Shown here one piece after another: positions 1,498-16,539 of a stretch of 18,492 nucleotides of DNA (position 1 is the stretch's first letter; the number at the start of each line of letters is the position of its first letter). The stretch is from Candidatus Heimdallarchaeota archaeon (GTDB lineage Archaea; Asgardarchaeota; Heimdallarchaeia; Hodarchaeales; Hodarchaeaceae): assembly GCA_020353515.1 (NCBI GenBank), contig CP070695.1, positions 2,886,639 to 2,905,130 on the forward strand, read 5' to 3'. The translations under genes and the position numbers were made by a program. A model generated the notes under the pieces. It did no database searches. It had not been told where the DNA came from and worked only from the letters and a program-made list of their open reading frames with translations.

Positions 1498-2646
1498 TTA
1501 GAAAACATACCCATACTTTTCTGCAATTTCCCCCGTTATTTGGATGATTTTTTCTTGTTCCTTGGTTGAGAATTTAGAGATATAATAAGTAGGTTTTGTT
1601 AATCGCTTAGAATAGTATTTTTTAATCTTACGAAATTTCTTTGGATCCACTTCTATATGGTCGATGATTTTATTTATCGTTGCCTCAGATTCTTCACAAA
1701 GATCTTCATAACGAACCATTAGACTCGCTTTGGCTAGATTCGTGTTCCTTTGTAATGTTTTATGAATATATGAGTATGCTTCTGCCCAATAAACAGCCCA
1801 CCCTTCTATATATGTTTCTTTACGCTTCCAAAAAGCACGAATTTTTTGCACAATTTTTGGATTGTTAAAATTGATACAGACTTTTGCGGTTCCGAACTCC
1901 CTATGCCCGATTAATTTTGTCCAATCCAGTAATCGGGGATCGTTATGTTCCAATTCTTTTAATATTCCATCTTGTTTGGCTAGAGAAGCTATATGGTCAA
2001 AGGGGTTCCTGATAATGATGATAAATTTAACATCAGGGAATAATTTTTGTAAATATTCCATTCTAGCGACGTTATAATTGTTTTTTGCTATATAACGAGA
2101 GGCGTTTCGATTAATCAATAGCTTTTTCAGATGGTCAGAATAAAATCTTTCGAATTGTGGATTTTGAGTTGTTGTGTCCAAGATATTAGATTTAGTTTCA
2201 TCATGGGTATTCTTAAAGAATCTCTGCCAGAATATTTCCTCAACAGCCTCAGGACTATCTCGAGTGACTGCTATTCTATCTTTATGGAGCCTTTCTACTG
2301 GTGATTTCATTATAGGAGTATAATCTGCAATATTTTGAGTCCAATGTGGTGAATATGGTAAAACCATATGTAAATATCTATGTGCAGCCACGTCAGGATG
2401 TTTATTGAGCATTTCAAGAGTAATTGTAGTTCCTGCTCTTGCCAATCCCGTTACATATATCGGTCGATCGATAATGGTCTTTTCCATTCTTTTCTTCAGT
2501 TGGTATGATTCAACAGTATGAACGATATTCGCAAGAGGAGAGAAAGTATGAAAAAATTTGACAATAAAATACATTGGTGCTGGGAAGTCAAATTCTTTGA
2601 GTTTTTTTGTTTCTGTTTTCTTGATTTTGATCAAGGGACTTTTCAC
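1498..2646 (-). CDS. PAPS-dependent sulfotransferase (Sulfotransfer_3-like)
   Basis: 5'-PSB loop RPIYVTGLARAGTT, 3'-PB motif IIIRNPFDHIASL, VRYEDL, C-terminal YGY. The GTG start is uncertain; the ATG at MYFIVK is an alternative. Confidence 0.9.
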   Translation of the reverse strand: MKSPLIKIKKTETKKLKEFDFPAPMYFIVKFFHTFSPLANIVHTVESYQLKKRMEKTIIDRPIYVTGLARAGTTITLEMLNKHPDVAAHRYLHMVLPYSPHWTQNIADYTPIMKSPVERLHKDRIAVTRDSPEAVEEIFWQRFFKNTHDETKSNILDTTTQNPQFERFYSDHLKKLLINRNASRYIAKNNYNVARMEYLQKLFPDVKFIIIIRNPFDHIASLAKQDGILKELEHNDPRLLDWTKLIGHREFGTAKVCINFNNPKIVQKIRAFWKRKETYIEGWAVYWAEAYSYIHKTLQRNTNLAKASLMVRYEDLCEESEATINKIIDHIEVDPKKFRKIKKYYSKRLTKPTYYISKFSTKEQEKIIQITGEIAEKYGYVF

Positions 2647-3028
2647 GTCTATTTTACATATTGGATCTCATTTTGTAGATGAAAATAAATATCTAATTAG
2701 TGTTTATAGGCAATGAAGGATTAAACAATGTTTCTGTTTAATATTTTTGTATTTATTAAGAAAAAGACTCATAGAAAGTTGTAGAATTTCATTATACTGG
2801 ATGTAAAAGCTTAAGATACTTTTTATTTGTCAATTAGATAGTTGATTACAATATGAATGAGAACATTATAGTGATTTTTTCAAAGGCACTATTATTTTCA
2901 TTCCATTTTACATTTTTAAAAGTTCATATGAGGCATAAAGAAGAGAAAAAATTAGAATATTTCATGAGAAATAATAAATGGTCTTAAAATAATTTCTTGA
3001 TTTATTATCCTCCAGGATTGTATGAGAT

Positions 3029-4912
3029 ATGCCTCTAAACAGCTCTAAAAAGGATTCTAAAGGAAGAACGTTTAAGTTTCAAGCTGAGATTCAACGAGTG
3101 CTAGACATTCTGATAAATCGTTTATATAAAAACCGAGAAATTTTCCTTAGGGAATTAATTTCCAATTCTGCTGATGCTTTACATCGGATGCGAATCGTAC
3201 AATTTGAAACGAAAGATTCTATCCTTGATCCTGATATTGAACTTGGAATTAAAATTACATTCGATGAGAATGAAAATACCTTAACAATTTCGGATACAGG
3301 CGTTGGAATGTCCTATCAGGAGATCAAGACCAACCTTGGTACTATTGCTCAAAGTGGAACTCTAGAATTTTTACAGCAATTAGAAGAGTCCCCTGATGCA
3401 ATTAACTTAATTGGTCAATTTGGTGTTGGATTCTACAGTTCCTTCATTGTGGCAAAGGAGGTTGTTGTCCGTTCTCGTTCGTATCCAGAAGATTCTCGAG
3501 GAGTAGAATGGCGATCCGACGGATCAGGTAAGTTTTCAGTCGCCTATGTTGACAAAGCTGACAGGGGAACTGAAGTTATTCTTTATCTAAAGGATGATAC
3601 CAAGGAGTTTGCTAATAGGTTTAAACTGGAATCCATTGTCAAAAAGTACAGTGATTTTGTAGGTTTTCCCATTCGTATTGCAGATGATGACCAAATTGTG
3701 AATCGTCAAGTTCCTATTTGGTACCAATCTGATGAAGTTACTGATGAAGAATTTAACGAGTTTTATCGTCAAGTGAGTTTAGATTGGACGGAACCTTTCC
3801 ATCGGATTCAACTAAACGTTGATGCTCCAATCCAATTTCGCGCACTGCTGTTTTTACCCAAACAACGCAGTCGAATGATGATGACATCTATGTATCAAGA
3901 TTATGGTCTCCGTTTATACAGTAAGAAAATCTTAGTTCAAGAAAAAGCGAAGGATCTTCTGCCTGAATACCTTCGATTCGTTTTTGGCGTGGTCGATAGT
4001 GAGGACCTTCCACTCAATGTATCCAGAGAAGTGATTCAGGTAGATCGAACTATACGTCGGATATCAAAAGTTATTACTGGCAGAATACTTGATGAGCTTG
4101 AGAAAATTGATGAGGATAAATATTTAGAATGGTGGGAACAATTTGGGGTGTTCATTAAAGAAGGCATTTCTCAAGATGAGAAACGACGTAAAAAGCTTCT
4201 AAATCAGCTTAGGGTAAGAACCTCAAAATCAGAAGATCAACTTATTGCCTTAACCAAATACGTTGAACAAATGCCGGATGTGCAGGAAGAGATCCTTTTT
4301 CTTCTAGGTGAAAGTCTCCCGATTCTAAAACGCAGTCCTCATTTAGAACACTATAGAAAAGTAGATCAAGAAGTAATTCTTTTCTCAGAACCTATAGATA
4401 GTTTCGTCGTTATGCATGTAACTGAATTTCAAGGTAAGAAATTCAAAGCTATTGACCAAGCAGAAGCGGAACCCTTTAAGGATGAGGATAAAGAGGAAGA
4501 AGAAACAAAGGAAGAGAAAGAAGAACCAGAGAAGGATCCATTCCTAACCCACTTAAAAGAAATACTAGAAGATCGAATTATTGATATAAAATATACTGAT
4601 TTTTTAACAGATAGTCCTTGTCGTCTTGTGAATCCTTCAGGCACTACAGCATTCACTCGAGTCTTAAAGTATATGGATGAAAACTATGTTCCTCAAAAGA
4701 AGATCATGGAAATCAATCCAGACCATTCTCTAATAATTAATTTAAATTCTTTATTTGAAAAAGACCCAGAGTCTCCTCTTATTCAAATATGTGCTTTCCA
4801 GTTGTTAGAAAATCAAGAATTAGCTGAAGGATCGTTACAAGATCCGACTGATATGATTAAACGAGTGAATCAACTGATGCAACAAGCCTTGGGAATAAAT
4901 CGAAATTCGTAG
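3029..4912 (+). CDS. htpG: Molecular chaperone Hsp90/HtpG
   Basis: FQAE, LYKNREIFLRELISNSADAL, DTGVGM, NLGTIAQSGT, IGQFGVGFYSSF, GVVDSEDLPLNVSRE, MEINPDH. No long N-M charged linker and no MEEVD, so HtpG/TRAP1 type. Confidence 0.97.
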   Translation: MPLNSSKKDSKGRTFKFQAEIQRVLDILINRLYKNREIFLRELISNSADALHRMRIVQFETKDSILDPDIELGIKITFDENENTLTISDTGVGMSYQEIKTNLGTIAQSGTLEFLQQLEESPDAINLIGQFGVGFYSSFIVAKEVVVRSRSYPEDSRGVEWRSDGSGKFSVAYVDKADRGTEVILYLKDDTKEFANRFKLESIVKKYSDFVGFPIRIADDDQIVNRQVPIWYQSDEVTDEEFNEFYRQVSLDWTEPFHRIQLNVDAPIQFRALLFLPKQRSRMMMTSMYQDYGLRLYSKKILVQEKAKDLLPEYLRFVFGVVDSEDLPLNVSREVIQVDRTIRRISKVITGRILDELEKIDEDKYLEWWEQFGVFIKEGISQDEKRRKKLLNQLRVRTSKSEDQLIALTKYVEQMPDVQEEILFLLGESLPILKRSPHLEHYRKVDQEVILFSEPIDSFVVMHVTEFQGKKFKAIDQAEAEPFKDEDKEEEETKEEKEEPEKDPFLTHLKEILEDRIIDIKYTDFLTDSPCRLVNPSGTTAFTRVLKYMDENYVPQKKIMEINPDHSLIINLNSLFEKDPESPLIQICAFQLLENQELAEGSLQDPTDMIKRVNQLMQQALGINRNS

Positions 4913-7201: not shown

Positions 7202-8113
7202 TTATAAAAGACCTCGAACGATATTGGCGATTTGTTCCATTTTAACAAGCACATAATGAAGAGGTGCGACCTTCTTGGCAATTCCAGTAAGAAGGAGTTC
7301 CTCTTTAATTTTATGAAAGACAAACATATAATCATCTGTTTCTAAAGTCGTTTTAAAGGTAACTTCAGTCTCGAACTCAGTTTTAATTCTATCGTAATTA
7401 GTTAACCAGAGATTAGCTGGAAGGATGATTCTTTCCACTAATTCACCCTCTTCAAATACAGGTAATCCATCATCAGTATATATTGCGATTCCTGATAGCT
7501 CGCTATGTTGTTTGATGAATTCCTGTATTGCATCAGATACAGTTTTTGCCTTTGTACTCTGGAGTATTAATGTTTGTATCATTTCACCAATAGCCAAGTA
7601 TATTGATTGATCAAAGATTGAAGTTTTACGATAATAAATTTTAATATCTTTGACAGGAATAAAATACTGTTTCATGGTTTCACTAACTTGCTCACGCATA
7701 TCAGGCAGTAAAAGATCAAGTTTATGAAATAAGCAAAAAACAATGGCGCTAGGAGAAAACTCTGCCAGTCTATTTACTGCGTGATCAAAATAAAATTTAC
7801 TTGTTGAGACTTGATCAAAATTACTAACATCAACTACCCAAACAAGAATTGTAACATCACTAAATATGAATTCAGCCTGTTCTCCGACAAATACAGAAAT
7901 AAAACTCTCTTGGCCACCACAATCAAAAATCTGGAATGCACTATCAATGATGCTTTTTGTTGAACGCGTGTAATTTATTGTCGCAGAATAATCTTTTACA
8001 TCCTCTGGTGATTTTCCTTCGAAAACTACTGACCTAATGCTACTCTTACCACTCGCTCCAAGTCCCATGAATAGTACTTTTTGCGCTGGAGGTGTTATTG
8101 TCAATAACTTCAA
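7202..8113 (-). CDS. Rag/Gtr1-family (RagA-like) small GTPase with C-terminal roadblock-like domain
   Basis: G1 KVLFMGLGASGKSSIRSVVF, G2 SATINY, G3 FDCGGQ, G4 FCLFHKLDL, G5 KTSIFD match RagA/Gtr1 motifs. C-terminal LSGIAIYTDDGLPV...LLLTGIA is roadblock-like. The true start may be TTG at 8104, which has GAGG 9 nt upstream. Confidence 0.9.
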   Translation of the reverse strand: MKLLTITPPAQKVLFMGLGASGKSSIRSVVFEGKSPEDVKDYSATINYTRSTKSIIDSAFQIFDCGGQESFISVFVGEQAEFIFSDVTILVWVVDVSNFDQVSTSKFYFDHAVNRLAEFSPSAIVFCLFHKLDLLLPDMREQVSETMKQYFIPVKDIKIYYRKTSIFDQSIYLAIGEMIQTLILQSTKAKTVSDAIQEFIKQHSELSGIAIYTDDGLPVFEEGELVERIILPANLWLTNYDRIKTEFETEVTFKTTLETDDYMFVFHKIKEELLLTGIAKKVAPLHYVLVKMEQIANIVRGLL

Positions 8114-8510: not shown

Positions 8511-10730
8511 TTGCAAATGTCTGAATGGGTGTCTGAATCTGAAATAACGGCTCGATTGGGTTATAAAATATTGATTGCTGGCTTAAGTGAAGCTGGGAAG
8601 ACTGCCGTAAAAAGAATTTTCTTTCTTAAACAGCAGACTGAAGATGTTGATAGTCTTTCGGCTACAATCAATTATGAAAGGATGTCACTTACGATCCATG
8701 ATACACCAATCACGATTGTAGACCTTGGTGGACAGAAGATATTCTTAAAACGATTCTTAAGCGGATTTAGCCCATTTGTCTTCAGTAGTGTGAAAACTTT
8801 TGTTTTTCTAATTGATGTGGCCAATAAAACTTCTCGGAATAATGCAATTCAATATTTTCAATCTTGTCTCGAAAAACTCTCAACTTTTTCTCCTGAAGCC
8901 ACAATCTTCGTTTTTCTACATAAAAACGATTTAGTAAGAGACTCACCTAATTATGAAAGTATTCATGAACAGTTAAAGGAACAATTTCAACTAGAATCTT
9001 CCCAAAAACTCAGATTTTTTCGAACTACAATTTACAGACCAGAAACAGTTATTAATAGTTTCGGGCGCATTTTTGAACTAACTATTCCCCAATTAGCTGA
9101 AAGTGAGTTTGTTGATTTTAAAACAATAGGTACAATTGAAGAACATCATGAAGAAGATATGACAATACGAGATTCAACACCTAAAGCTGAAATAGATCAA
9201 AAACCCGAGCCAATTTCTCCTACTGCTCCCAAAATAGCTGGCAATCAAGTAATCTTGAAGAAGTTACAAGGTTTGATGCAGCAAGCTGTAAAAAAAGAGT
9301 TTCCATCAGCATATCATTCCCCAAACCAAATGTCTCAAAAAGCCATATTTCTTGGAAATGCTGCAACAGAAGAATCTACTACGGAAACAATCTTAACTTC
9401 AGCAAAAGTGGTGGAGGAAACACCCACTTCTCCACAAATAGAAACCCAGCCGCATTCTACGCCGGTAGATGAAGAATCCATTGCATCTGAAGCTCAAGAA
9501 ATATTGAAACACGAAATAACAGAAATAAATCCCCAAATCAGTCATTTGGTGGACTTTTTCCGAATAGAAGCAAACGAAGCTGTAGAGATCGTTAATACTG
9601 GGTATGGCGATGTTTTTGAAATGGCAGTTACATCAGGGATTCCAATACCACTTGTAACTGATGTCATGTTGAAATATTTACCCTTTATTCAAAAATCACA
9701 AGGACTTGAGAAATATAAGCTAATAAATCGGGAAAAGTTATTAGAATTATTTCATGTTTTCTTGAAAGGACAATTACAAGAAAAAGATATAGTTAAATGC
9801 CTTGTATTAGTAACAGAAAAACCTAAAATGAGTATTGATGATATTGCAAAGAACTATCTCACTCCAAAGAAAAAGGTAAAAAAGAAGAAAGAAATCAAGG
9901 AGAAAATCCCGCTTGACTTTGCAAAACTAGACATCCCTGTTGAAGCAGAAAGTGTTGAAGGAATTATTACTTTACCCGATACTCAGGGAATGGGCTTTAA
10001 AGTCGAGATTATTAAACCAGAATGTTTGAATGCTCGTTTAACATTCCATTTACAAGGCCCTGTTGGCCAACGAGAACTTATTGGAAGCTCAATAGTTTCA
10101 ACTAAGATTACAAGTCAAGAGATCCTTTATCTTTTAGCTTACGAGATGAATATGACAGGATTGGGTATTTTTGAAGATGGAATCGGTTCTATGAATTTCG
10201 CTGCAAAGATAATTCGTGAGGCAATCCAACAAGTTCGTGAAGAGAACTTAAGCTCCACATCAGAGGTAAAAACCAAGAAAATCCGAAAAGAGGAGGGATA
10301 TCTGACTGAAACCATAAGTTTCATTATTCCTATGGAGATTAAAATTGAGGAAAATCACATTCTCATCCCTGACAGTGAGAAGGTAGCTTTTTTAGTAGAA
10401 AAAGCTAAGAAAGGGCTATTATTAAGTTTCGTCCAGCGAGGTTTTCCCATAGGCCAAGTAAATGTTGCAGACTCCATTACTGTTCCTCAAATTCGAAGAT
10501 TATTAAAAGAAGCAATGCAGATACCAATTGAGTCAGAAGGAGCCGTTGATTTTGCAAGTCGTATTATCCATGCTGCTATAAGAAGTCTAATTGAATCACC
10601 AGAAGCAGTACTTCCAATTAAATCAACAAAAATCCAACCTAAAATTATAGAAAAACCTGTTTTAGAAGAACCAAGAGATGAGACGTCAGAGAAACTCTTG
10701 AGTTACCTAGAACTTCTAGAAAAAGACTGA
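8511..10730 (+). CDS. Rag/Gtr-like GTPase with long C-terminal extension (linker, helical domain, two repeated alpha/beta domains)
   Basis: KILIAGLSEAGKT, SATINY, DLGGQ, FLHKNDL and FRTTIY in the first ~190 aa. Start is TTG 8511 or ATG 8517. Confidence 0.85.
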   Translation: MQMSEWVSESEITARLGYKILIAGLSEAGKTAVKRIFFLKQQTEDVDSLSATINYERMSLTIHDTPITIVDLGGQKIFLKRFLSGFSPFVFSSVKTFVFLIDVANKTSRNNAIQYFQSCLEKLSTFSPEATIFVFLHKNDLVRDSPNYESIHEQLKEQFQLESSQKLRFFRTTIYRPETVINSFGRIFELTIPQLAESEFVDFKTIGTIEEHHEEDMTIRDSTPKAEIDQKPEPISPTAPKIAGNQVILKKLQGLMQQAVKKEFPSAYHSPNQMSQKAIFLGNAATEESTTETILTSAKVVEETPTSPQIETQPHSTPVDEESIASEAQEILKHEITEINPQISHLVDFFRIEANEAVEIVNTGYGDVFEMAVTSGIPIPLVTDVMLKYLPFIQKSQGLEKYKLINREKLLELFHVFLKGQLQEKDIVKCLVLVTEKPKMSIDDIAKNYLTPKKKVKKKKEIKEKIPLDFAKLDIPVEAESVEGIITLPDTQGMGFKVEIIKPECLNARLTFHLQGPVGQRELIGSSIVSTKITSQEILYLLAYEMNMTGLGIFEDGIGSMNFAAKIIREAIQQVREENLSSTSEVKTKKIRKEEGYLTETISFIIPMEIKIEENHILIPDSEKVAFLVEKAKKGLLLSFVQRGFPIGQVNVADSITVPQIRRLLKEAMQIPIESEGAVDFASRIIHAAIRSLIESPEAVLPIKSTKIQPKIIEKPVLEEPRDETSEKLLSYLELLEKD
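9927..10589 (+). repeat. Protein-level tandem duplication of a ~90-105 aa domain
   Basis: Copy 1 (~9927-10235): IPVE..IITLPDTQGMGFKVE..IGSSIVSTKITSQEILYLL..MNFAAKIIREAI. Copy 2 (~10320-10589): IPME..HILIPDSEKVAFLVE..IGQVNVADSITVPQIRRLL..VDFASRIIHAAI. Confidence 0.75.
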
Positions 10731-10780: not shown

Positions 10781-12106
10781 TCACTTGTGATCTTCAGTAG
10801 TGGTCATATATTTTCCAAAAAGATTCAAAATATCATCCATTGCAATTTGGAGTTGTTCCCGATTTACTCCTTTCGATCTTTCAAACCAACCGCGTTTAAT
10901 CGTTGATTTTGAGTCGTCATGATATGCTATTAAATTTGTAGCGTCATTGAAGACATCACGTAGTTCTGGAATAAGAGGTAAACCAAAGAGTAAGAGAATA
11001 GAAGACCGGTCTATATTTGGATCATCATAAGTCACAAATGATGGTTGTATCGATCCGCCTTTTACAAGGTAAGGTGCAAGAATCTTTTTTAAGTGAGCTG
11101 AATATTCTAGCTTAGCTATATCCTTATGTCCACTAAAAATGGAATAAACAGAACCAGCCATGGGTTTTGTTTCAATATCAGTTAAAGAACAGTGATTAAC
11201 AGCATATCTTGCTGCGAGAGCCATCTGTTTTTCCATACTACCATATTTAGGTAGAAAGTACATATCCTCGAAATAACAAGGAACCACCACTGGATCCAAT
11301 CTTCGGGAATAATCAGCTAGATCTGTAGTTGGCATGACTTTTTTGCCTGGTTCCTGAATGCTTGGGGAAAGAATTGCCTCTATAGTTTGTAAAGCCAACG
11401 GATTTACCAACTGAGTAAATTCTACCTCTGTTTCCATTCGCTGTTGCTCATCACTTGAAGCTAAGTCAGCAGAATCAATGCCTAAAGATTGGTCTAGTAA
11501 TGCACTTGCACGCCCCTCCCTCCAAGCCATAACCCTTTTTAACATTGTTTTATTTGATAATAAAAAGATCAAATTAGGCCCTTTGTTTGGTTCTAATTGA
11601 TTTCTTAATAAGGTTGATAACGACCAGATTGAGTTTATTGCTTCTGATGATTGATTCTCAAACGGTAAAACACCAAATACATAAATAAAAATTCGTCGTT
11701 CTTCTGAAAATTGCTTATGGAGAAGTTCTACTAGTGCTGGGGTTCCACCACAACCAGTACCACCTCCAAGACTGGTTAGAATGATAAAACCAGAGACCCC
11801 CTCATATCCAAGTCCTTTTAATTGATTAAGAATAAGATCCTGATTTTTTATGACAAGATCATAACCTTCCTTAAATTTTCCTCCCACACCTATTTCTTCA
11901 TCAGAATACATCAGAGTATTTTGGTTAGGAATTGAATACTCAGTACGTGTTTTCATAAGATCAGTCTTATCAGTGTTTATTATAAGATATTCACGGATAC
12001 GAGATGCTCCTGTTTGTTTCTTACTTTTTTGGATGTAGGAACCTACAAGATTTGAGCCACATTCTCCTGCTCCAATTATGAATACATCTGCTTCTCTACT
12101 TACCAC
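10781..12106 (-). CDS. Tubulin/FtsZ/CetZ-superfamily GTPase, divergent, with tubulin-like C-terminal helices
   Basis: T1 IIGAGECGSNL, T2 INTDKTDL, T3 GVGG, signature SLGGGTGCGG, VLPF, LSN, T7 TTDLADY. GTG start with AGGAGG SD. Confidence 0.92.
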   Translation of the reverse strand: MVSREADVFIIGAGECGSNLVGSYIQKSKKQTGASRIREYLIINTDKTDLMKTRTEYSIPNQNTLMYSDEEIGVGGKFKEGYDLVIKNQDLILNQLKGLGYEGVSGFIILTSLGGGTGCGGTPALVELLHKQFSEERRIFIYVFGVLPFENQSSEAINSIWSLSTLLRNQLEPNKGPNLIFLLSNKTMLKRVMAWREGRASALLDQSLGIDSADLASSDEQQRMETEVEFTQLVNPLALQTIEAILSPSIQEPGKKVMPTTDLADYSRRLDPVVVPCYFEDMYFLPKYGSMEKQMALAARYAVNHCSLTDIETKPMAGSVYSIFSGHKDIAKLEYSAHLKKILAPYLVKGGSIQPSFVTYDDPNIDRSSILLLFGLPLIPELRDVFNDATNLIAYHDDSKSTIKRGWFERSKGVNREQLQIAMDDILNLFGKYMTTTEDHK

Positions 12107-12114
12107 AATAGGAT

Positions 12115-12120
12115 CCTCCT
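12115..12120 (-). promoter_or_regulatory. Shine-Dalgarno AGGAGG overlapping the upstream gene's TAG
   Basis: Plus-strand cctcct at 12115-12120; upstream stop at 12121-12119; 8 nt to GTG 12106. Confidence 0.75.
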
Positions 12121-15100
12121 ATCTATTTGTTACATAGAGTTCTACCGCTGAAGATAAATATTGAATCATCGGTTGATGATTATATGCTTCCTCAATTTCT
12201 CGTTTGGCATTTGCAATATAAGTTATCTGTTCATCACTGTTAGTCGTTGGTTTATAATCACTAATAAATAAAAAGAGAACATTGTGCCATTTTGAAATCA
12301 CTGGTAACCAATCTTGCTTCCATTGCGTTTTTAATTTGGAGATTGTTGTTAAAAGATCATAAATTTCCATTAGATTAGCTGATGATTGAATTTTTTCTCT
12401 TGCAGCATTTAATTCATTGAGTGAGAAAATCTCTTTTGAGCATTCTTCAAGTTTAAATCGAAAAACTTCTTGAATACTCTGATAATATGGTAATCTTGGA
12501 TCAGTTTCTAGTTCAGATAAGTAACTATCAAAGTTCTCCTGTTCTAATTGTCGAATAGCCTGAATGAGTTCCTTTGACCTTTGTATTACTTCAACTGTTG
12601 ACTTAGCGATGAGATCAAAGGACCAAAATTGAATCGCTACTTTTGCTTGTTTAATTGCGACAACTTGAGGCATTAATAAATGTTGAGCGTTTTTCCAACC
12701 TAATGCTTGAACAAAATCAAATATCCTACCAGCAATGTCATTATTATCTTCAATTATTTTAAATAATGATTTCTGAAGCTCCTCATTTTTTAATATCTTA
12801 TCCAGTTCTACAAAAGATTGAGTAATCATTTCAATAGACATCATATCAGAAGAATCTGCTTGAACTAACTGTGTAAAGACTTCGATTTGTTCTCCTACTA
12901 AATTTTGGAGACTAATTCCAAGAGCTTGAAGTTCAGCAATCCGCATGAGTAAGTTTTTGCTTGAGATGCTTAGGAGTTCCATAAGTTTTGCTAATAAGAC
13001 ATATTCGTAATCATGGATGGTTTCAATGACCAAACGATGGATAGATTCAAGAGTTTGATCTTTTCTGGGAATTGTGCTCTCTAAATAGCTATAGACCTTA
13101 CGAACTTCTGGGGAAACCTCTCCCATTACTTCTGTGATTCGGGGAAGACTAACTGTGACCTTATTGTAATAGAAAGCTTTTAATTTCTCAAGACATTCTT
13201 GGGATTTACTAGTTGCGCTACTAAGATAAAATTCAAACTTTGACAACGCTTCTTCTGCGCCTAATGATAGGTTTAATTCTGATAAGGCGGAATCAAGTAT
13301 CAGAAATAGAGGATTAAAAATAGCTGAATAATGTGGTGGCAGAGATTTGTACTGTTTTAACCAGTTTGACAAGATTTCCCGACATTTTAGCTGGACTAGT
13401 TCTGTTTTTTTATTGTTAAATGTGGATAAACGGAACCATAATTCTAAGAGCTCAGAGTAATCCAAAGCTTCAAGATCTCTAGGAATTTCAAAAATAGGAT
13501 CTGATCCAATTACCTCGTTGAAGTATTTTAAGGATGATTGGTTTGTCCTTTCCATTAGATCAATCTGTTTTAAGGTTTCTTCGATCATCAGATTTTTAGA
13601 AGAAGACATCACTTTTTTGAAGTCAAAATAAGCTCTAATTGTGGAGACGAAATTTCGACTAGCCGCAGTTCCAGTTAATTGGGTTAATAGAGTGTTTTTC
13701 TCTTTTCTCAAATCTACTGGAACCTCTCCAGGTATCATTGGAAATGTCAAAGAATCAATTTTATTTTTGAGAAATGAAATTACTTCTCGTTTCCATTCCT
13801 CTACTTTTTCAATTCTACTAAGTAATTCAGATAGGTCCAACTCACTAGCATCTTCAACAAATGGAGGACGGGGAATCTGTGAATCTGATTCAAGTAACTG
13901 TAGCACTGTAACGTCTTTTAAGAAGTCCTTTATGAATGCGGCCGTTAATGTAACAAATTGTTTATATAATCGTTCATAAGATCGTCGGTACAGTAAAAGA
14001 GTTTGTACTTCGGATTCTGAAGCCATCTTCTCATAAAGAGATGTAAGTTCAGCTTGAAAATTAGGCGGAAAACTGCTTATTCCCTTTCTTTCTAATTGGT
14101 TAACATTGATTATTGTGTCATTTACGGCGTGTCTAGTCTCCTGTAAAACATTAACTAGCCTGTGTTTCCAAATAGTGACTGCTCGAAGATAACTTAATAA
14201 CTCAGAAGGACTGTCAGATTGCAGATTAACATTTGGTGGTTTGAGTGATATCAATGCACTGGAGTCAGAATCAGTGAAATCCAAGCTCAAACTGTCACTA
14301 ATCTTGTCACGTAGAATATTAAGAAACTCATTATAATAAGTTTGAAAATGTTTCAATTTTCTTACTGCTTCTTCAATATTAACTTCTTCTTGGACCTGAT
14401 TAGCACTTTCAGTTGCATTTGCTAATAAAGTATTGGGTATACTAACCCCCTCCTGAAGAGCTCCCTCTGTGACTTGCTTCATTTCTTCAACAGAAGCAAA
14501 TTTCTTTATCCCGCCGAGAATCTGGCTTTTCCATTTATTTATCTTTTCAAAATAGGTCATTAATTCAGTGATAGAAGCTTTTGGATCTAATTCAGGAGGT
14601 GAAGCCATCCATTTGTCTGTGAGTGCAGGGAACATTCCTTGAATCTGGACGATTAAATTTCTTGTTGTTGTTCTTGCACGTGTTATCTCTGATTTAAGCG
14701 TTGTTCTGTATTTTGTAGTATATTGTGAGATTTTAGAGTTTAGTTGATTCAGCTCACCAATCGATTTTGCCATTTCAATCTGATTAATAATCTCTTTAAT
14801 TCCATGGTATTCCTCCATATCGGGAATGATTTTCCTTTTAGCTCCCTCTTGGATAGAATAAATTAAATCATGAGCTGACTGCAGTAATTTCTCTTGAACA
14901 GTTTCAGATGATACAGTAAGTTGTTGATTAATGAGTTCCTCTTCTTTTTTAAGAGTAGAATACGATTTTAATAAATCAGAGATCGCAAGAGAATTGAGAG
15001 TGTCTTTTGTTAGGATTTTTGTTTGTTGATATATACTTGCGTCGAGAGAGATGAGATCTTTATACATTTCTATTTTAGATTGGTTATCGTTCAGAATTAC

Positions 15101-15541
15101 TTCGCAAAGTGATCTTATTTGCATAGTTGTTTCAGCTTGAACTTTCTCTACTTCTTCAAGAAAAGATGACATTGTATCAATTTCTGAAGTCAATGGAAAC
15201 CTCAGATTCCTTAAAAAACTCGCAGCTTGGGGAGCAACAGCTGATAGGGCTTGGATTTGAGTTTCAAGGAGAGGTTTTAGATCTTTTATCAAAGAATTAA
15301 AGATACATTGCAAACAAGCTTCCTCAGATCCCATTAAATCCGACTGTAACTCTTCCTGTTGCTTTTTTAATCCCCGTTTAGCGAGTCGTCCAGCTTTATC
15401 AACTTCTGCTTCTAACTGAGATTTTTGCTGAATAAGCTTAGATAACTTTGTCAGTTCAGGTGCGCAAACAGGTTTTGAGAGGAGCTTATTAATTTTGGAA
15501 AGAATTTCTGATATTAAGGTTAAGTTATCTGAAGACATCAA
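12119..15541 (-). CDS. Large all-alpha-helical repeat/coiled-coil protein of unknown function
   Basis: 1140 aa rich in L/E/K/Q/S, with no evident TM segment or P-loop and a ~120-127 aa internal period. Start is probably ATG 15538. Confidence 0.8.
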   Translation of the reverse strand: MMSSDNLTLISEILSKINKLLSKPVCAPELTKLSKLIQQKSQLEAEVDKAGRLAKRGLKKQQEELQSDLMGSEEACLQCIFNSLIKDLKPLLETQIQALSAVAPQAASFLRNLRFPLTSEIDTMSSFLEEVEKVQAETTMQIRSLCEVILNDNQSKIEMYKDLISLDASIYQQTKILTKDTLNSLAISDLLKSYSTLKKEEELINQQLTVSSETVQEKLLQSAHDLIYSIQEGAKRKIIPDMEEYHGIKEIINQIEMAKSIGELNQLNSKISQYTTKYRTTLKSEITRARTTTRNLIVQIQGMFPALTDKWMASPPELDPKASITELMTYFEKINKWKSQILGGIKKFASVEEMKQVTEGALQEGVSIPNTLLANATESANQVQEEVNIEEAVRKLKHFQTYYNEFLNILRDKISDSLSLDFTDSDSSALISLKPPNVNLQSDSPSELLSYLRAVTIWKHRLVNVLQETRHAVNDTIINVNQLERKGISSFPPNFQAELTSLYEKMASESEVQTLLLYRRSYERLYKQFVTLTAAFIKDFLKDVTVLQLLESDSQIPRPPFVEDASELDLSELLSRIEKVEEWKREVISFLKNKIDSLTFPMIPGEVPVDLRKEKNTLLTQLTGTAASRNFVSTIRAYFDFKKVMSSSKNLMIEETLKQIDLMERTNQSSLKYFNEVIGSDPIFEIPRDLEALDYSELLELWFRLSTFNNKKTELVQLKCREILSNWLKQYKSLPPHYSAIFNPLFLILDSALSELNLSLGAEEALSKFEFYLSSATSKSQECLEKLKAFYYNKVTVSLPRITEVMGEVSPEVRKVYSYLESTIPRKDQTLESIHRLVIETIHDYEYVLLAKLMELLSISSKNLLMRIAELQALGISLQNLVGEQIEVFTQLVQADSSDMMSIEMITQSFVELDKILKNEELQKSLFKIIEDNNDIAGRIFDFVQALGWKNAQHLLMPQVVAIKQAKVAIQFWSFDLIAKSTVEVIQRSKELIQAIRQLEQENFDSYLSELETDPRLPYYQSIQEVFRFKLEECSKEIFSLNELNAAREKIQSSANLMEIYDLLTTISKLKTQWKQDWLPVISKWHNVLFLFISDYKPTTNSDEQITYIANAKREIEEAYNHQPMIQYLSSAVELYVTNR
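13390..14602 (-). repeat. Protein-level helical repeats, period ~120-127 aa
   Basis: aa~314 SPPELDPKASITELMTYFEKINKWK; ~434 KPPNVNLQSDSPSELLSYLRAVTIWK; ~558 RPPFVEDASELDLSELLSRIEKVEEWK; ~685 EIPRDLEALDYSELLELWFRL. Confidence 0.7.
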
Positions 15542-15603
15542 TGGCCATCCCTATTGACTACTTTTTACTTGTCATTTTTAAAATAGTTTATATTACAAAT
15601 CGA

Positions 15604-16539
15604 TCATATTTCAGTACTAGAGGATTGAATCTGATCCAATGCTAGAGAACAACGAGCAATATATTCCGCAATTTCTTTAACCTGAGATCTAAGTGTTTTT
15701 CGTACAGTTAGATCTACAAATCGAAATGGAACATTTGACAAATCTTCCCCTGTAGTTCCCAAGATTGTCTCTGTGATTTCATTGAGCTTTTTAGAAATAT
15801 GTGTAGACATAACCGAGACATATTTTGCCCTTTCATCTTGAATCATAAGGCCAAGACTTAATCGGTGTAATTGTCCTTTATCTAACCATTTTGCAGGAGT
15901 ATAGATGAATATAGAGAAAGATTTATCAGCAACTTCAAGATTAAGCACAGAGGAGCCAAGATCTTTTCCAAATTGATCATCTTTTTGTGTTGACTCTTCG
16001 ATCTGTTTTTCAGCAAATAGAGAAAATACATCCAAAATTTCCTTTTTATCGACATCTGTAAATTCAAGAATTGTTTCCCAAAGGCTAGAAGTTGAACCTT
16101 GAAGTGCTGAAAAAAAATCAATTATTATTACAACATTGGCTTCCTTCATAACATTGTAGACTTCTTCATAAGGTATAGTTTCAGAAAGAGCTACCATACT
16201 TTGAAAAGTAGAAGCATCAGCTTCTAATAATGAAACAAACTCCGTTTCTGCTGAACTTGTTTCTCCGACTTCTTCCCCAAAAGCCATAAAAGCAATGTCT
16301 TCAAGATCCATCTCTTGAAGTTCTTGCTTTTGCTTTTCCCTCTCTTGTATATCTGAGAATAGAGCGTCGACCATTGATGAATCATAAAATAATTGATAAA
16401 TCCTCATCATAAGATCATCTAAACTCTTACCTTCTCCATCTTCCATATATTCTTTTAAAATTGACCGCATGACAACATGTTTCGCAATTCGTGCACCACG
16501 AACTTGATCTTCCACTTCTTCTGTGACAAATTGGGACAT
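15604..16539 (-). CDS. Hypothetical protein: acidic helical N-terminus plus possible degenerate longin/uDENN-like domain
   Basis: 311-aa ORF with ATG start. VVIIIDFFSALQGS and FSIFIYTP..WLDKGQLHRLSLGLMI follow the longin strand order. CDS is secure; the domain is tentative. Confidence 0.55.
   Translation of the reverse strand: MSQFVTEEVEDQVRGARIAKHVVMRSILKEYMEDGEGKSLDDLMMRIYQLFYDSSMVDALFSDIQEREKQKQELQEMDLEDIAFMAFGEEVGETSSAETEFVSLLEADASTFQSMVALSETIPYEEVYNVMKEANVVIIIDFFSALQGSTSSLWETILEFTDVDKKEILDVFSLFAEKQIEESTQKDDQFGKDLGSSVLNLEVADKSFSIFIYTPAKWLDKGQLHRLSLGLMIQDERAKYVSVMSTHISKKLNEITETILGTTGEDLSNVPFRFVDLTVRKTLRSQVKEIAEYIARCSLALDQIQSSSTEI

Follow-up and report, generated by a model that had tools for sequence, protein, structure and literature searches.

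An Asg.Tub-family second paralogue from a Hodarchaeales-type archaeon with an FtsZ/CetZ-like core, predicted tubulin-type C-terminal helices and a conserved helical candidate partner

Introduction

Among prokaryotes, Asgard archaea are most closely related to eukaryotes. In eukaryotes, the outer surface formed by H11-H12 of tubulin serves as the platform for motors and MAPs, and in tubulins generally the M-loop face provides the lateral protofilament contacts. Proteins of Asgard archaea that share features with both tubulin and CetZ bear on the transition between FtsZ/CetZ-like filaments and tubulin.

The closest described relatives of the protein analyzed here are the Asgard 'CetZ-like' tubulin paralogues that Santana-Molina, del Saz-Navarro and Devos named Asg.Tub in 2023 (PMC9871819), with members from Heimdall LC-3, B3-JM-08 and Thorarchaeales. 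A 2026 preprint (bioRxiv 10.64898/2026.02.15.705738) refers to the same group as the 'CetZ-related Asgard archaeal clade'. In the 2023 study, the Asg.Tub C-terminus gave no HMM match to any other family, and Asg.Tub and artubulins separated in the trees. The group was judged 'more closely related to CetZ', and inspection of indels argued against an affiliation with tubulin; Figure 4 of the same paper places Asg.Tub next to the tubulins (PMC9871819). The Asg.Tub genes described there have unknown helical proteins as neighbours, a feature shared by the locus reported here.

This locus lies in a stretch of 18,492 nucleotides (the window) from Candidatus Heimdallarchaeota archaeon (GCA_020353515.1, contig CP070695.1). 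It probably encodes an intact second paralogue of the apparently Asgard-only Asg.Tub family, one that would combine an FtsZ/CetZ-like core with tubulin-type H11'-H12 helices, form a GTP-driven polymer and act with a helical partner.

Results

A putative GTPase gene with a complete set of nucleotide-binding loops

The window protein is a 441-aa member of the tubulin/FtsZ superfamily, in which residues 8-168 match Pfam PF00091 (E = 5.8e-19; 69.5 bits, cut-off 33). Window positions 10808-10972 (minus strand) correspond to residues I379-Y433 (IPELRDVF ... LNLFGKY). The features of the gene are as follows.

10781..12106, minus strand: Asg.Tub-family tubulin-like GTPase gene, window-type second paralogue (ORF, GTG start, 441 aa)
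11519..12085, minus strand: N-terminal GTP-binding domain, approximately residues 8-196 (Pfam and PDB sequence matches over residues 8-169), with loops T1 GECGSN, T2 INTD, T3 GVGGKF..GY, T4 GGGTGCGG, T5 LPFENQSS and T6 LSN
11432..11512, minus strand: low-confidence, length-variable and partly acidic H6-H7 insertion, residues 199-225 (pLDDT <50; length differs across the family)
11312..11329, minus strand: T7 loop TTDLAD, residues 260-265, with presumed catalytic D262 and D265 (aligns with FtsZ N.D[FY]AD and CetZ VVD[TA][AS][DE])
10922..10969, minus strand: H11-like helix, residues 380-395, IPEL..A..LI (AF2; aligns with H11 of CetZ and tubulins)
10802..10903, minus strand: predicted H11'-H12-like helices, residues 402-435, WF.RSKG ... 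A..D...LFG.Y (AF2, structural alignment and hhalign)

The protein was aligned loop by loop with CetZ, tubulin and FtsZ, and conservation was scored across 54 family members. The T1-T6 set is complete, and its residues are kept across these members. The reading frame and the four loops quoted in the initial annotation, GECG (G14-G17), INTD (42-46), GVGG (73-76) and DLAD (262-265), read exactly as quoted and are conserved in the same 54 members. T4 (residues 114-121) corresponds to the superfamily signature GGGTG[ST]G and is invariant apart from a Cys variant, with Cys standing where the comparators carry Ser/Thr, and T6 reads SN in the window protein versus DN in all comparators. In T7, D262 is invariant and D265 is kept in at least 90% of members; to judge from the sequence, this acidic pair would confer GTPase activity.

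The core loops are of the CetZ/FtsZ type, as had been proposed, based on T2 (NTD..DL) and T7 (TDLAD). The likeness to CetZ extends over the NT..DL of T2, the GVG of T3, the T7 acidic pair and an alignable S7-H11 profile. T1 (G.CG.N) and the F..GY of T3 are similar to tubulin, whereas T2 NTD differs from tubulin DLEP and T7 TDLAD from tubulin N.D...[EK]. Overall identity to tubulins is 13-18%.

The lineage is known, and the window gene is a second paralogue

The C-terminal motif order of the family alignment is that of supplement 35 of PMC9871819 (IPEL...LHSG.S.LK..WF.RSKG...LFG.Y). The Asg.Tub clade contains the Heimdall LC_3 protein P0083 and Thor proteins in a broad 113-row tree (97*), and in a reduced careful tree it includes the Baldrarchaeial protein P0122 (100/100). 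The window protein is therefore Asg.Tub, a family named in 2023, and the intermediate lineage suggested in the initial annotation is not a new one. That annotation had named nesting in an already characterized clade as evidence against itself, and what was found counts partly in that direction: the clade is already named, but it is experimentally uncharacterized.

In total, 178 homologues were found, from Asgard MAGs in every named case. A library of 1.8 billion proteins likewise yields full-length relatives that carry Asgard labels where named; a few members of the P0122 (Baldrarchaeial) cluster are labelled Bathyarchaeota or Thermofilum MAG. Asg.Tub is common in Asgard archaea, occurring in 126 of 400 genomes, and true tubulins, recognized by Tubulin_C, are rare (8/400). 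Within the window's genus, Asg.Tub is present in 20 of the 21 other genomes, and neither true tubulins nor Tubulin_C were detected in these 21 or in the genome that carries the window.

That genome encodes two Asg.Tub copies, and two copies are present in 9 genomes of the genus (G000 included). Window-type copies form a clade (7 rows, 100*) with the canonical Heimdall copies as its sister group; the window-type copies are 75-97% identical among themselves and ~50-55% identical to the canonical ones. As a second paralogue, the window gene has been seen in its own Hodarchaeales-type genus alone.

The predicted fold extends to the end of tubulin H12

The AF2 model of the 441-aa protein (pLDDT 80.5, pTM 0.84) predicts a two-domain fold around the core helix H7, with a strand at residues 368-375 followed by helices at 380-395, 402-412 and 416-430/435. 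In structural comparison (VIA), CetZ and tubulins give Z scores of 33-34 over 328-362 residues with an rmsd of 3.0-3.3, and the CetZ structures (Haloferax volcanii CetZ1/CetZ2, 4b46/4b45; Methanosaeta thermophila, 3zid) are equal by this measure (Z = 34.4/33.2/32.8). The aligned ranges differ. The alignment with CetZ 3zid (Z = 34.4, rmsd 3.2, 328 aligned) stops at model residue 404, whereas OdinTubulin places model residues 4-434 on chain residues 2-419 (Z = 34.3, rmsd 3.0, 362 aligned) and beta-tubulin places 5-434 on 1-423 (Z = 33.4, rmsd 3.1, 354 aligned). For the tubulins as a group (OdinTubulin 7evb, AtubA/B 9f6t, alpha/beta/gamma), the predicted fold matches from the N-terminus to the end of H12. 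Solved CetZ chains align to model residues 394-404 at most, and thus lack H11'-H12, while residues 405-434 are covered by tubulin chains alone. A Foldseek search with the model likewise ranks tubulins first (E = 5e-19, TMq 0.65).

The superposition that the initial annotation had suggested as a check thus points to tubulin-type H11-H12 helices in the model, with the packing of H12 judged from alignment ranges rather than residue-level model coordinates. Since predictor networks are trained on many tubulin structures, the tubulin-like tail of the model could be partly memory.

Sequence profiles of the C-terminal tail match Asgard tubulins

Full-length profile-profile alignment of the family with tubulins recovered the N-terminal domain alone, and the C-terminus therefore needed a test of its own. 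Using hhalign, the family profile of residues 398-436 (39 residues at the C-terminus) was compared with a profile of ten Asgard tubulins. W407..Y433 aligned on Atub 395-422 with a score of 32.1 and P = 3.6e-5 (range to 7.5e-5), in a register that agrees with the structural alignment and places the W-aromatic...G...A...L...Y positions of H11'-H12 in correspondence. None of 200 column shuffles reached this score (mean 12.2, sd 2.4, max 21.1), which lies 8 sd above them, and the reversed tail profile scored 11.3. Taken singly, all ten Asgard tubulins matched the tail profile at the homologous place. The likeness to the tubulin C-terminus first noticed by eye is, therefore, beyond chance.

The tail profile scored 8-18, at unrelated places, against 25 other CetZ/CetZ-like proteins, and in hhalign comparisons of CetZ with the family C-terminal profile no alignment extended beyond H11. 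For the S7-H11 part of the family profile, CetZ gives an alignment of 104 columns (E = 2e-3) and tubulin gives none. The H11'-H12 match is short (28 columns, identity ~25%). Asgard tubulins of the AtubA/B and Odin types give the strongest match; it falls to P ~1e-3 against a mixed tubulin profile and is weak against gamma-tubulins. The tail motif recurs in all branches of the family, Baldrarchaeia included. The earlier study found no C-terminal match (PMC9871819), whereas in the present comparison, made with Asgard tubulins published since then, the last 28 residues align with H11'-H12 of these tubulins. We also considered whether an H12-like tail might be general among CetZ-like groups; this idea was dropped, as unnamed CetZ-like lineages near Asg.Tub gave no H11'-H12 profile match.

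Together, predicted structure and sequence profile support an H11-H11'-H12 hairpin like that of true tubulins and unlike CetZ. The protein differs from CetZ in its two extra helices (402-412 and 416-435), its long H6-H7 insertion and its lack of CetZ_C. CetZ tails are reported to be disordered (Duggin et al., 2015). The window protein differs from tubulins in lacking a long acidic tail, Tubulin_C and an adjacent gene for a heterodimer partner. If the tail is truly an H11-H12 hairpin, the platform used by motors and MAPs would predate, or lie outside, bona fide tubulin.

Placement between tubulin, CetZ and FtsZ

One explanation of these features, which we regard as possible though rather doubtful, is that Asg.Tub is a divergent CetZ offshoot whose extra helices arose independently, with the likeness to H12 reflecting convergence of amphipathic helices together with structure-predictor bias. 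Such a protein would work as CetZ does, forming cell-shape or membrane-associated filaments. The T2 and T7 loops and the S7-H11 profile fit this explanation, as does the published judgement of a closer relationship to CetZ, and the best PDB sequence matches are CetZ2 (7e-11) and CetZ1 (5e-10), versus 2e-5 for tubulins. However, no match to Pfam CetZ_C (PF21011) was found in the window protein at E <= 0.01, compared with 4.2e-49 for the true CetZ P0131; the CetZ clade (99/96) leaves Asg.Tub out; T1 GECGSN and the F..GY of T3 lean to tubulin; and the tail matches Asgard tubulins in the right register, far above shuffles. A sister relationship with true tubulins, in which Asg.Tub kept an ancestral H11-H12 hairpin and represents a genuine CetZ/FtsZ-to-tubulin intermediate, draws on the tail profile, the model region covered by tubulins alone, the Foldseek ranking and the published Figure 4, and on a careful ML tree in which tubulin plus Asg.Tub is split from CetZ plus FtsZ at 95/86. 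We nevertheless consider it doubtful. The tree analysis flags the Asg.Tub-tubulin join as one where long branches meet, and the join depends on the C-terminal columns, with SH-aLRT for the tubulin grouping dropping to 42 when these are removed. A tree constrained to group Asg.Tub with CetZ is not rejected (delta lnL 5.3, p-AU 0.24), the broad 113-row tree has no resolved order among the three groups, Pfam Tubulin_C (PF03953) has no match in the window protein, and the published indel inspection opposes a tubulin affiliation. The intermediate position envisaged by the initial annotation is favoured by the join in the ML tree but weakened by the long branches, the tail dependence and the AU test. 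Its distinction of the protein from OdinTubulin and AtubA/B stands, as Asg.Tub falls outside the tubulin clade (support 100* and 100/100; stem length ~2 substitutions per site) and Tubulin_C is not matched.

A mosaic origin, in which a CetZ-like core gained H11'-H12 by recombination with a tubulin gene of Asgard type, would account for a tail nearest to Asgard AtubA/B- and Odin-type tubulins and weak to gamma, on a C-terminal domain that otherwise matches CetZ. We consider this very improbable. Segment identity of only ~25% means that any transfer of the tail would be ancient, the motif occurs throughout the family, and the potential donors are scarce, given the few Asgard genomes with true tubulins and their absence from the window's genome and the 21 others of its genus.

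A co-duplicated helical protein as candidate partner

Directly upstream of the tubulin-like gene lies a gene for a large all-alpha protein. The features of the pair that bear on a possible interaction are as follows.

12119..15541, minus strand: co-duplicated all-alpha partner gene, 1140 aa, directly upstream (full-length homology to the canonical paralogue's partner, E = 2e-61)
12107..12121, minus strand: intergenic junction, 12 bp (partner TAG stop 12121-12119 overlaps the SD sequence AGGAGG 12120-12115, 8 nt before the GTG)
12167..12292, minus strand: partner C-terminal helices, residues 1084-1125, WH..LFLF..DY and IEEAY (predicted contact with the tubulin-like protein)
11192..11266, minus strand: S7 end, M-loop-equivalent loop and H9 of the tubulin-like protein, residues 281-305 (predicted partner-docking face)

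In Thor and Baldr, the genes at the upstream position encode homologues of the 1140-aa protein; partner and tubulin-like gene have adjacent locus tags in 4 MAGs, and the cassette is kept in Thor and Baldr. The gene pair was duplicated together and is conserved as a pair, and the layout of the junction suggests translational coupling. The canonical cassette has a third gene (~355 aa) downstream; compared with this arrangement, the window copy retains the partner upstream and is without the third gene, of which no homologue was found in the window.

The AF2 model of the partner is all-helical (pLDDT 83.6). Pfam gave no match in the partner, in the 311-aa upstream ORF or in the third gene of the canonical cassette, the ESM Atlas returned the partner's own Thor relatives alone (at 0.78), and a Foldseek search of the PDB with the partner model returned nothing at E <= 0.001. 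As the best Foldseek hits were generic helical repeats (E = 0.06), an identity as spectrin, PRC1 or GCP was not adopted.

Complex prediction, which covered partner residues 700-1140, gave a score of 0.69, compared with 0.00 for the best control; the runs have 65% or more of their contacts in common, and the pLDDT of the partner does not fall below 82. Among solved complexes, 58 of 80 attain this score mark, as do 2 of 110 mismatched pairs; these counts hold only roughly, because alignments built for this analysis were used. The predicted interface involves residues 281-305 and 366 of the tubulin-like protein, i.e., the M-loop/H9 face, and for partner residues 700-1140 no contact was predicted with the H11-H12 face.

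Based on the data above, and with both the fold and the complex being predicted, we infer polymerization, GTPase activity and a cellular role for the protein. GTP would be bound through the complete T1-T6 loops, subunits would polymerize head to tail, and the T7 aspartates would reach the nucleotide of the neighbouring subunit, leading to GTP hydrolysis as in FtsZ, CetZ and tubulin. Given a tubulin-type H11'-H12 hairpin after H11, the outer face of the filament should resemble that of tubulin. The protein may act with the presumably translationally coupled helical protein, whose conserved C-terminal helices would dock on the M-loop/H9 lateral face, so that the role of the partner would lie in organizing or capping lateral contacts and not in binding H11-H12. 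A bolder version, which seems unlikely to us, is that Asg.Tub is the closest surviving sister of tubulin, retaining the ancestral H11-H12 surface and working in a dedicated three-protein filament system with the giant helical protein on its M-loop face; if so, it would offer a snapshot from before microtubule-type lateral bonding evolved.

The conserved helical partner offers a concrete, model-based binding hypothesis for a putative filament system. The C-terminal motif of the partner is common to the Hod, Thor and Baldr proteins, and on the tubulin-like protein the interface residues D281, G289, Q294 and Y301 are conserved family-wide. The remaining interface residues, on both chains, are kept within each paralogue and differ between paralogues.

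A lineage-restricted Asg.Tub paralogue

The two central genes are:
10781-12106 (-), tubulin-like GTPase ORF, 441 aa, GTG start, from ORF reading
12119-15541 (-), partner, an all-alpha ORF of 1140 aa lying 12 bp before the tubulin-like gene, with AGGAGG overlapping the partner stop codon

Residues 8-168 of the tubulin-like protein form a Tubulin/FtsZ GTPase domain (Pfam, E = 5.8e-19), and neither CetZ_C nor Tubulin_C was found in the protein by Pfam. The closest solved proteins by sequence are CetZ2 (7e-11) and CetZ1 (5e-10), with tubulins next at about 2e-5 or weaker, and in every case the match covers the N-terminal domain only. Near-identical proteins are found in MAGs with a Hodarchaeales/Hodarchaeota label; at about 50% identity, relatives occur in MAGs labelled Heimdall, Thor, Loki and Hermod, and a 42%-identical branch of the family is Baldrarchaeial. 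The initial annotation proposed an intermediate lineage, possibly distinct from OdinTubulin, AtubA/B and artubulins. An Asgard paralogue group, 'Asg.Tub', with an unstable placement between CetZ and tubulins, had been described by Santana-Molina et al. 2023 (PMC9871819), and the C-terminal alignment in their supplement, which covers LC-3, B3-JM-08 and two Thorarchaeales, has its motifs in the same order as the window protein. Among the papers searched, the name appears in PMC9871819 only. The lineage is therefore one already named, though experimentally uncharacterised.

A family profile built from 54 members detected Asg.Tub in 126 of 400 Asgard genomes, with several large families lacking it; within the window's genus, 20 of the other 21 genomes have a copy. 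A true tubulin (PF03953) is present in just 8 of the 400, and the window's genus has none. The window's genome, a single 4.94-Mb contig, has three PF00091 genes: one FtsZ and two Asg.Tub copies, the tubulin-like gene and another lying 2.2 Mb from it. In a 113-row tree the window protein belongs to a 7-row clade (100*), whose sister group is made up of canonical Heimdall-type copies, the genome's own other copy among them. The window gene is therefore a lineage-restricted duplicate, and its product a new paralogue within a named but uncharacterised family.

This genome shows a single FtsZ_C-bearing gene (L001, G000:C1:2326672-2327577; 467 aa, with a long extension at the N-terminus), against two in many of the other Asgard genomes searched. 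A 6-Mb Asgard genome (G137; L006, L014, L016, L017) has four tubulin genes with PF03953, including a tandem pair, and another tandem pair is found in a genome from the window's class (G047; L007, L015).

Nucleotide-binding loops

T1, GECGSN, nearer tubulin GQ[AC]GNQ than CetZ GQAGGK
T2, NTD..DL, CetZ/FtsZ-type (tubulins, DLEP)
T3, GVGG.F..GY, GVG as in CetZ plus aromatic..GY as in tubulin
T4, GGGTGCGG, the superfamily signature with Ser/Thr replaced by Cys
T5, LPF, FtsZ-like
T6, residues S184-N185 (SN), 11552-11557 (-), invariant in the family; DN in CetZ, tubulin and FtsZ
T7, TDLAD, keeping the acidic pair of FtsZ/CetZ
H6-H7 insertion, residues 199-225, 11432-11512 (-), low-confidence in the model

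This loop-by-loop comparison upheld the earlier reading of T1 as tubulin-like and of T2 and T7 as FtsZ/CetZ-like. GVGG had also been called FtsZ/CetZ-like; T3 joins the GVG of CetZ to the aromatic..GY of tubulin. From this mosaic of loops we infer a putatively active, self-activating GTPase. The H6-H7 insertion was found in no comparator family; it varies in length across the family, is partly acidic, and is longer in Thor-type copies.

A predicted tubulin-type C-terminal tail

The C-terminal text quoted initially, and read as tubulin H11-H12, is encoded exactly by 10972-10808 (I379-Y433). An AF2 model built with a 54-row alignment (pLDDT 80.5, pTM 0.84) places helices at 380-395, 402-412 and 416-430/435 downstream of strand 368-375, with block pLDDT values of 75-91. 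Beta- and gamma-tubulin, OdinTubulin and AtubB took the top Foldseek ranks (E about 5e-19, TMq 0.62-0.66), with CetZ1 not far below (6e-18, TMt 0.79), and VIA-align scores were tied among three structures:

CetZ 3zid, Z 34.4, rmsd 3.2 A, 328 aligned residues, model 5-404
OdinTubulin, Z 34.3, rmsd 3.0 A, 362 aligned residues, model 4-434, chain 2-419
beta-tubulin, Z 33.4, rmsd 3.1 A, 354 aligned residues, model 5-434, chain 1-423

In this superposition, the tubulins reach model residue 434 and the CetZ chains end at 394-404 (394 for CetZ1 and 398 for CetZ2 in VIA-align). The roughly 34 additional aligned residues are, in this predicted structure, H11'-H12.

Sequence profiles tested the tail independently. 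The family profile over 398-436 aligns W407..Y433 to residues 395-422 of the Asgard-tubulin profile (P = 3.6e-5), a register that agrees with the structural end points, and nothing in CetZ aligns to the family C-terminal profile past H11. Just before the tail, the S7-H11 region matches CetZ (E = 2e-3) and showed no alignment to tubulin in the profile comparison. The observed score of 32.1 compares with a mean of 12.2 (sd 2.4, maximum 21.1) for 200 column shuffles and with 11.3 for a reversed profile. Tested singly, all 10 of 10 Asgard tubulins match at the right place, gamma-tubulins mostly do not, and the best alignments of 25 further superfamily members fall elsewhere, with scores of 8-18. 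Profile, structural alignment and controls together argue for the proposed tubulin-like tail, in predicted structure and detectably in sequence, with a short segment and a prediction underlying both. This argument for a tubulin-type H11'-H12, structural as well as statistical and backed by controls, is one of three additions that the analysis makes.

Phylogenetic position

The grouping of Asg.Tub with tubulin leans on the tail. A broad tree gave an unresolved trichotomy of tubulins (100*), CetZ (86) and Asg.Tub with several unnamed archaeal lineages (95*). A reduced, careful tree separated {tubulin + Asg.Tub} from {CetZ + FtsZ} at 95/86, with the tubulin join flagged as long branches meeting; support fell to 42 once columns from residue 377 onward were removed, so the tubulin affinity comes largely from the tail, the second addition of the analysis. 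Constraining Asg.Tub with CetZ cost 5.3 lnL and was not rejected (p-AU 0.24). Given this and the tail-dependent support, the 'intermediate' status proposed for the lineage between CetZ/FtsZ and tubulin is unproven. The initial observation is confirmed, and its interpretation partly supported.

Unnamed archaeal tubulin-like lineages, P0140/P0173 and P0194/P0199/P0185, grouped with Asg.Tub (95*) and not CetZ in the broad tree, and are without the Asg.Tub H11'-H12 motif. Members of the P0173 cluster bear a Korarchaeota label.

A candidate partner

The partner matched no Pfam family and nothing significant by structure, and locus tags of its orthologues adjoin the tubulin-like gene in four MAGs. 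The canonical paralogue has the same arrangement elsewhere in the genome, its 1171-aa upstream protein being homologous to the partner along the full length (E = 2e-61). Thor and Baldr cassettes run from a large helical protein through Asg.Tub to a 300-355-aa protein, all three genes homologous across classes; the window copy retains the first two only.

When the tubulin-like protein was modelled in complex with residues 700-1140 of the partner, the prediction scored 0.69 against 0.00 for the best control. Of 80 solved complexes 58 reach that mark, as do 2 of 110 mismatched pairs, counts that are only rough given the custom alignments used. Contact agreement between runs was at least 65% and partner pLDDT at least 82. 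On the tubulin-like protein, the predicted interface covers residues 281-305 and 366 (end of S7, M-loop-equivalent loop and H9); on the partner it covers helices 1084-1095 and 1115-1125, the partner's best-conserved part across classes. On both chains, interface residues are kept within each paralogue pair and differ between pairs, around common anchors (D281, G289, Q294 and Y301 with F1092, E1118 and Y1120), the pattern that would be expected of co-diverged, pair-specific interfaces. We infer that the partner may occupy the lateral face of the tubulin-like protein, in place of the lateral protofilament contacts that tubulins make there; this specific docking prediction, on the M-loop/H9 face, is the third addition.

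At each of the Odin-type tubulin loci (L008-L013), a conserved 443-470-aa ORF without an assigned family lies ahead of the tubulin gene in the same orientation, an arrangement that looks like another tubulin-plus-partner pair.

Neighbouring genes

3029-4912 (+), full-length HSP90-family chaperone (PF00183, E = 1e-104), adjoining the GTPase cluster
7202-8113 (-), Gtr1/RagA-type small GTPase (E = 1.8e-39)
8511-10730 (+), second Gtr1/RagA-type small GTPase (E = 9.3e-31), 739 aa, extended at the C-terminus by a long stretch without Pfam match; convergent with the tubulin-like gene, whose 3' end it faces

In the same genome, the canonical Asg.Tub cassette (L004) is flanked by an Arf-family GTPase (1333-2283), a CDC48-type AAA ATPase (2296-4602) and a RING-finger protein (14807-15793).
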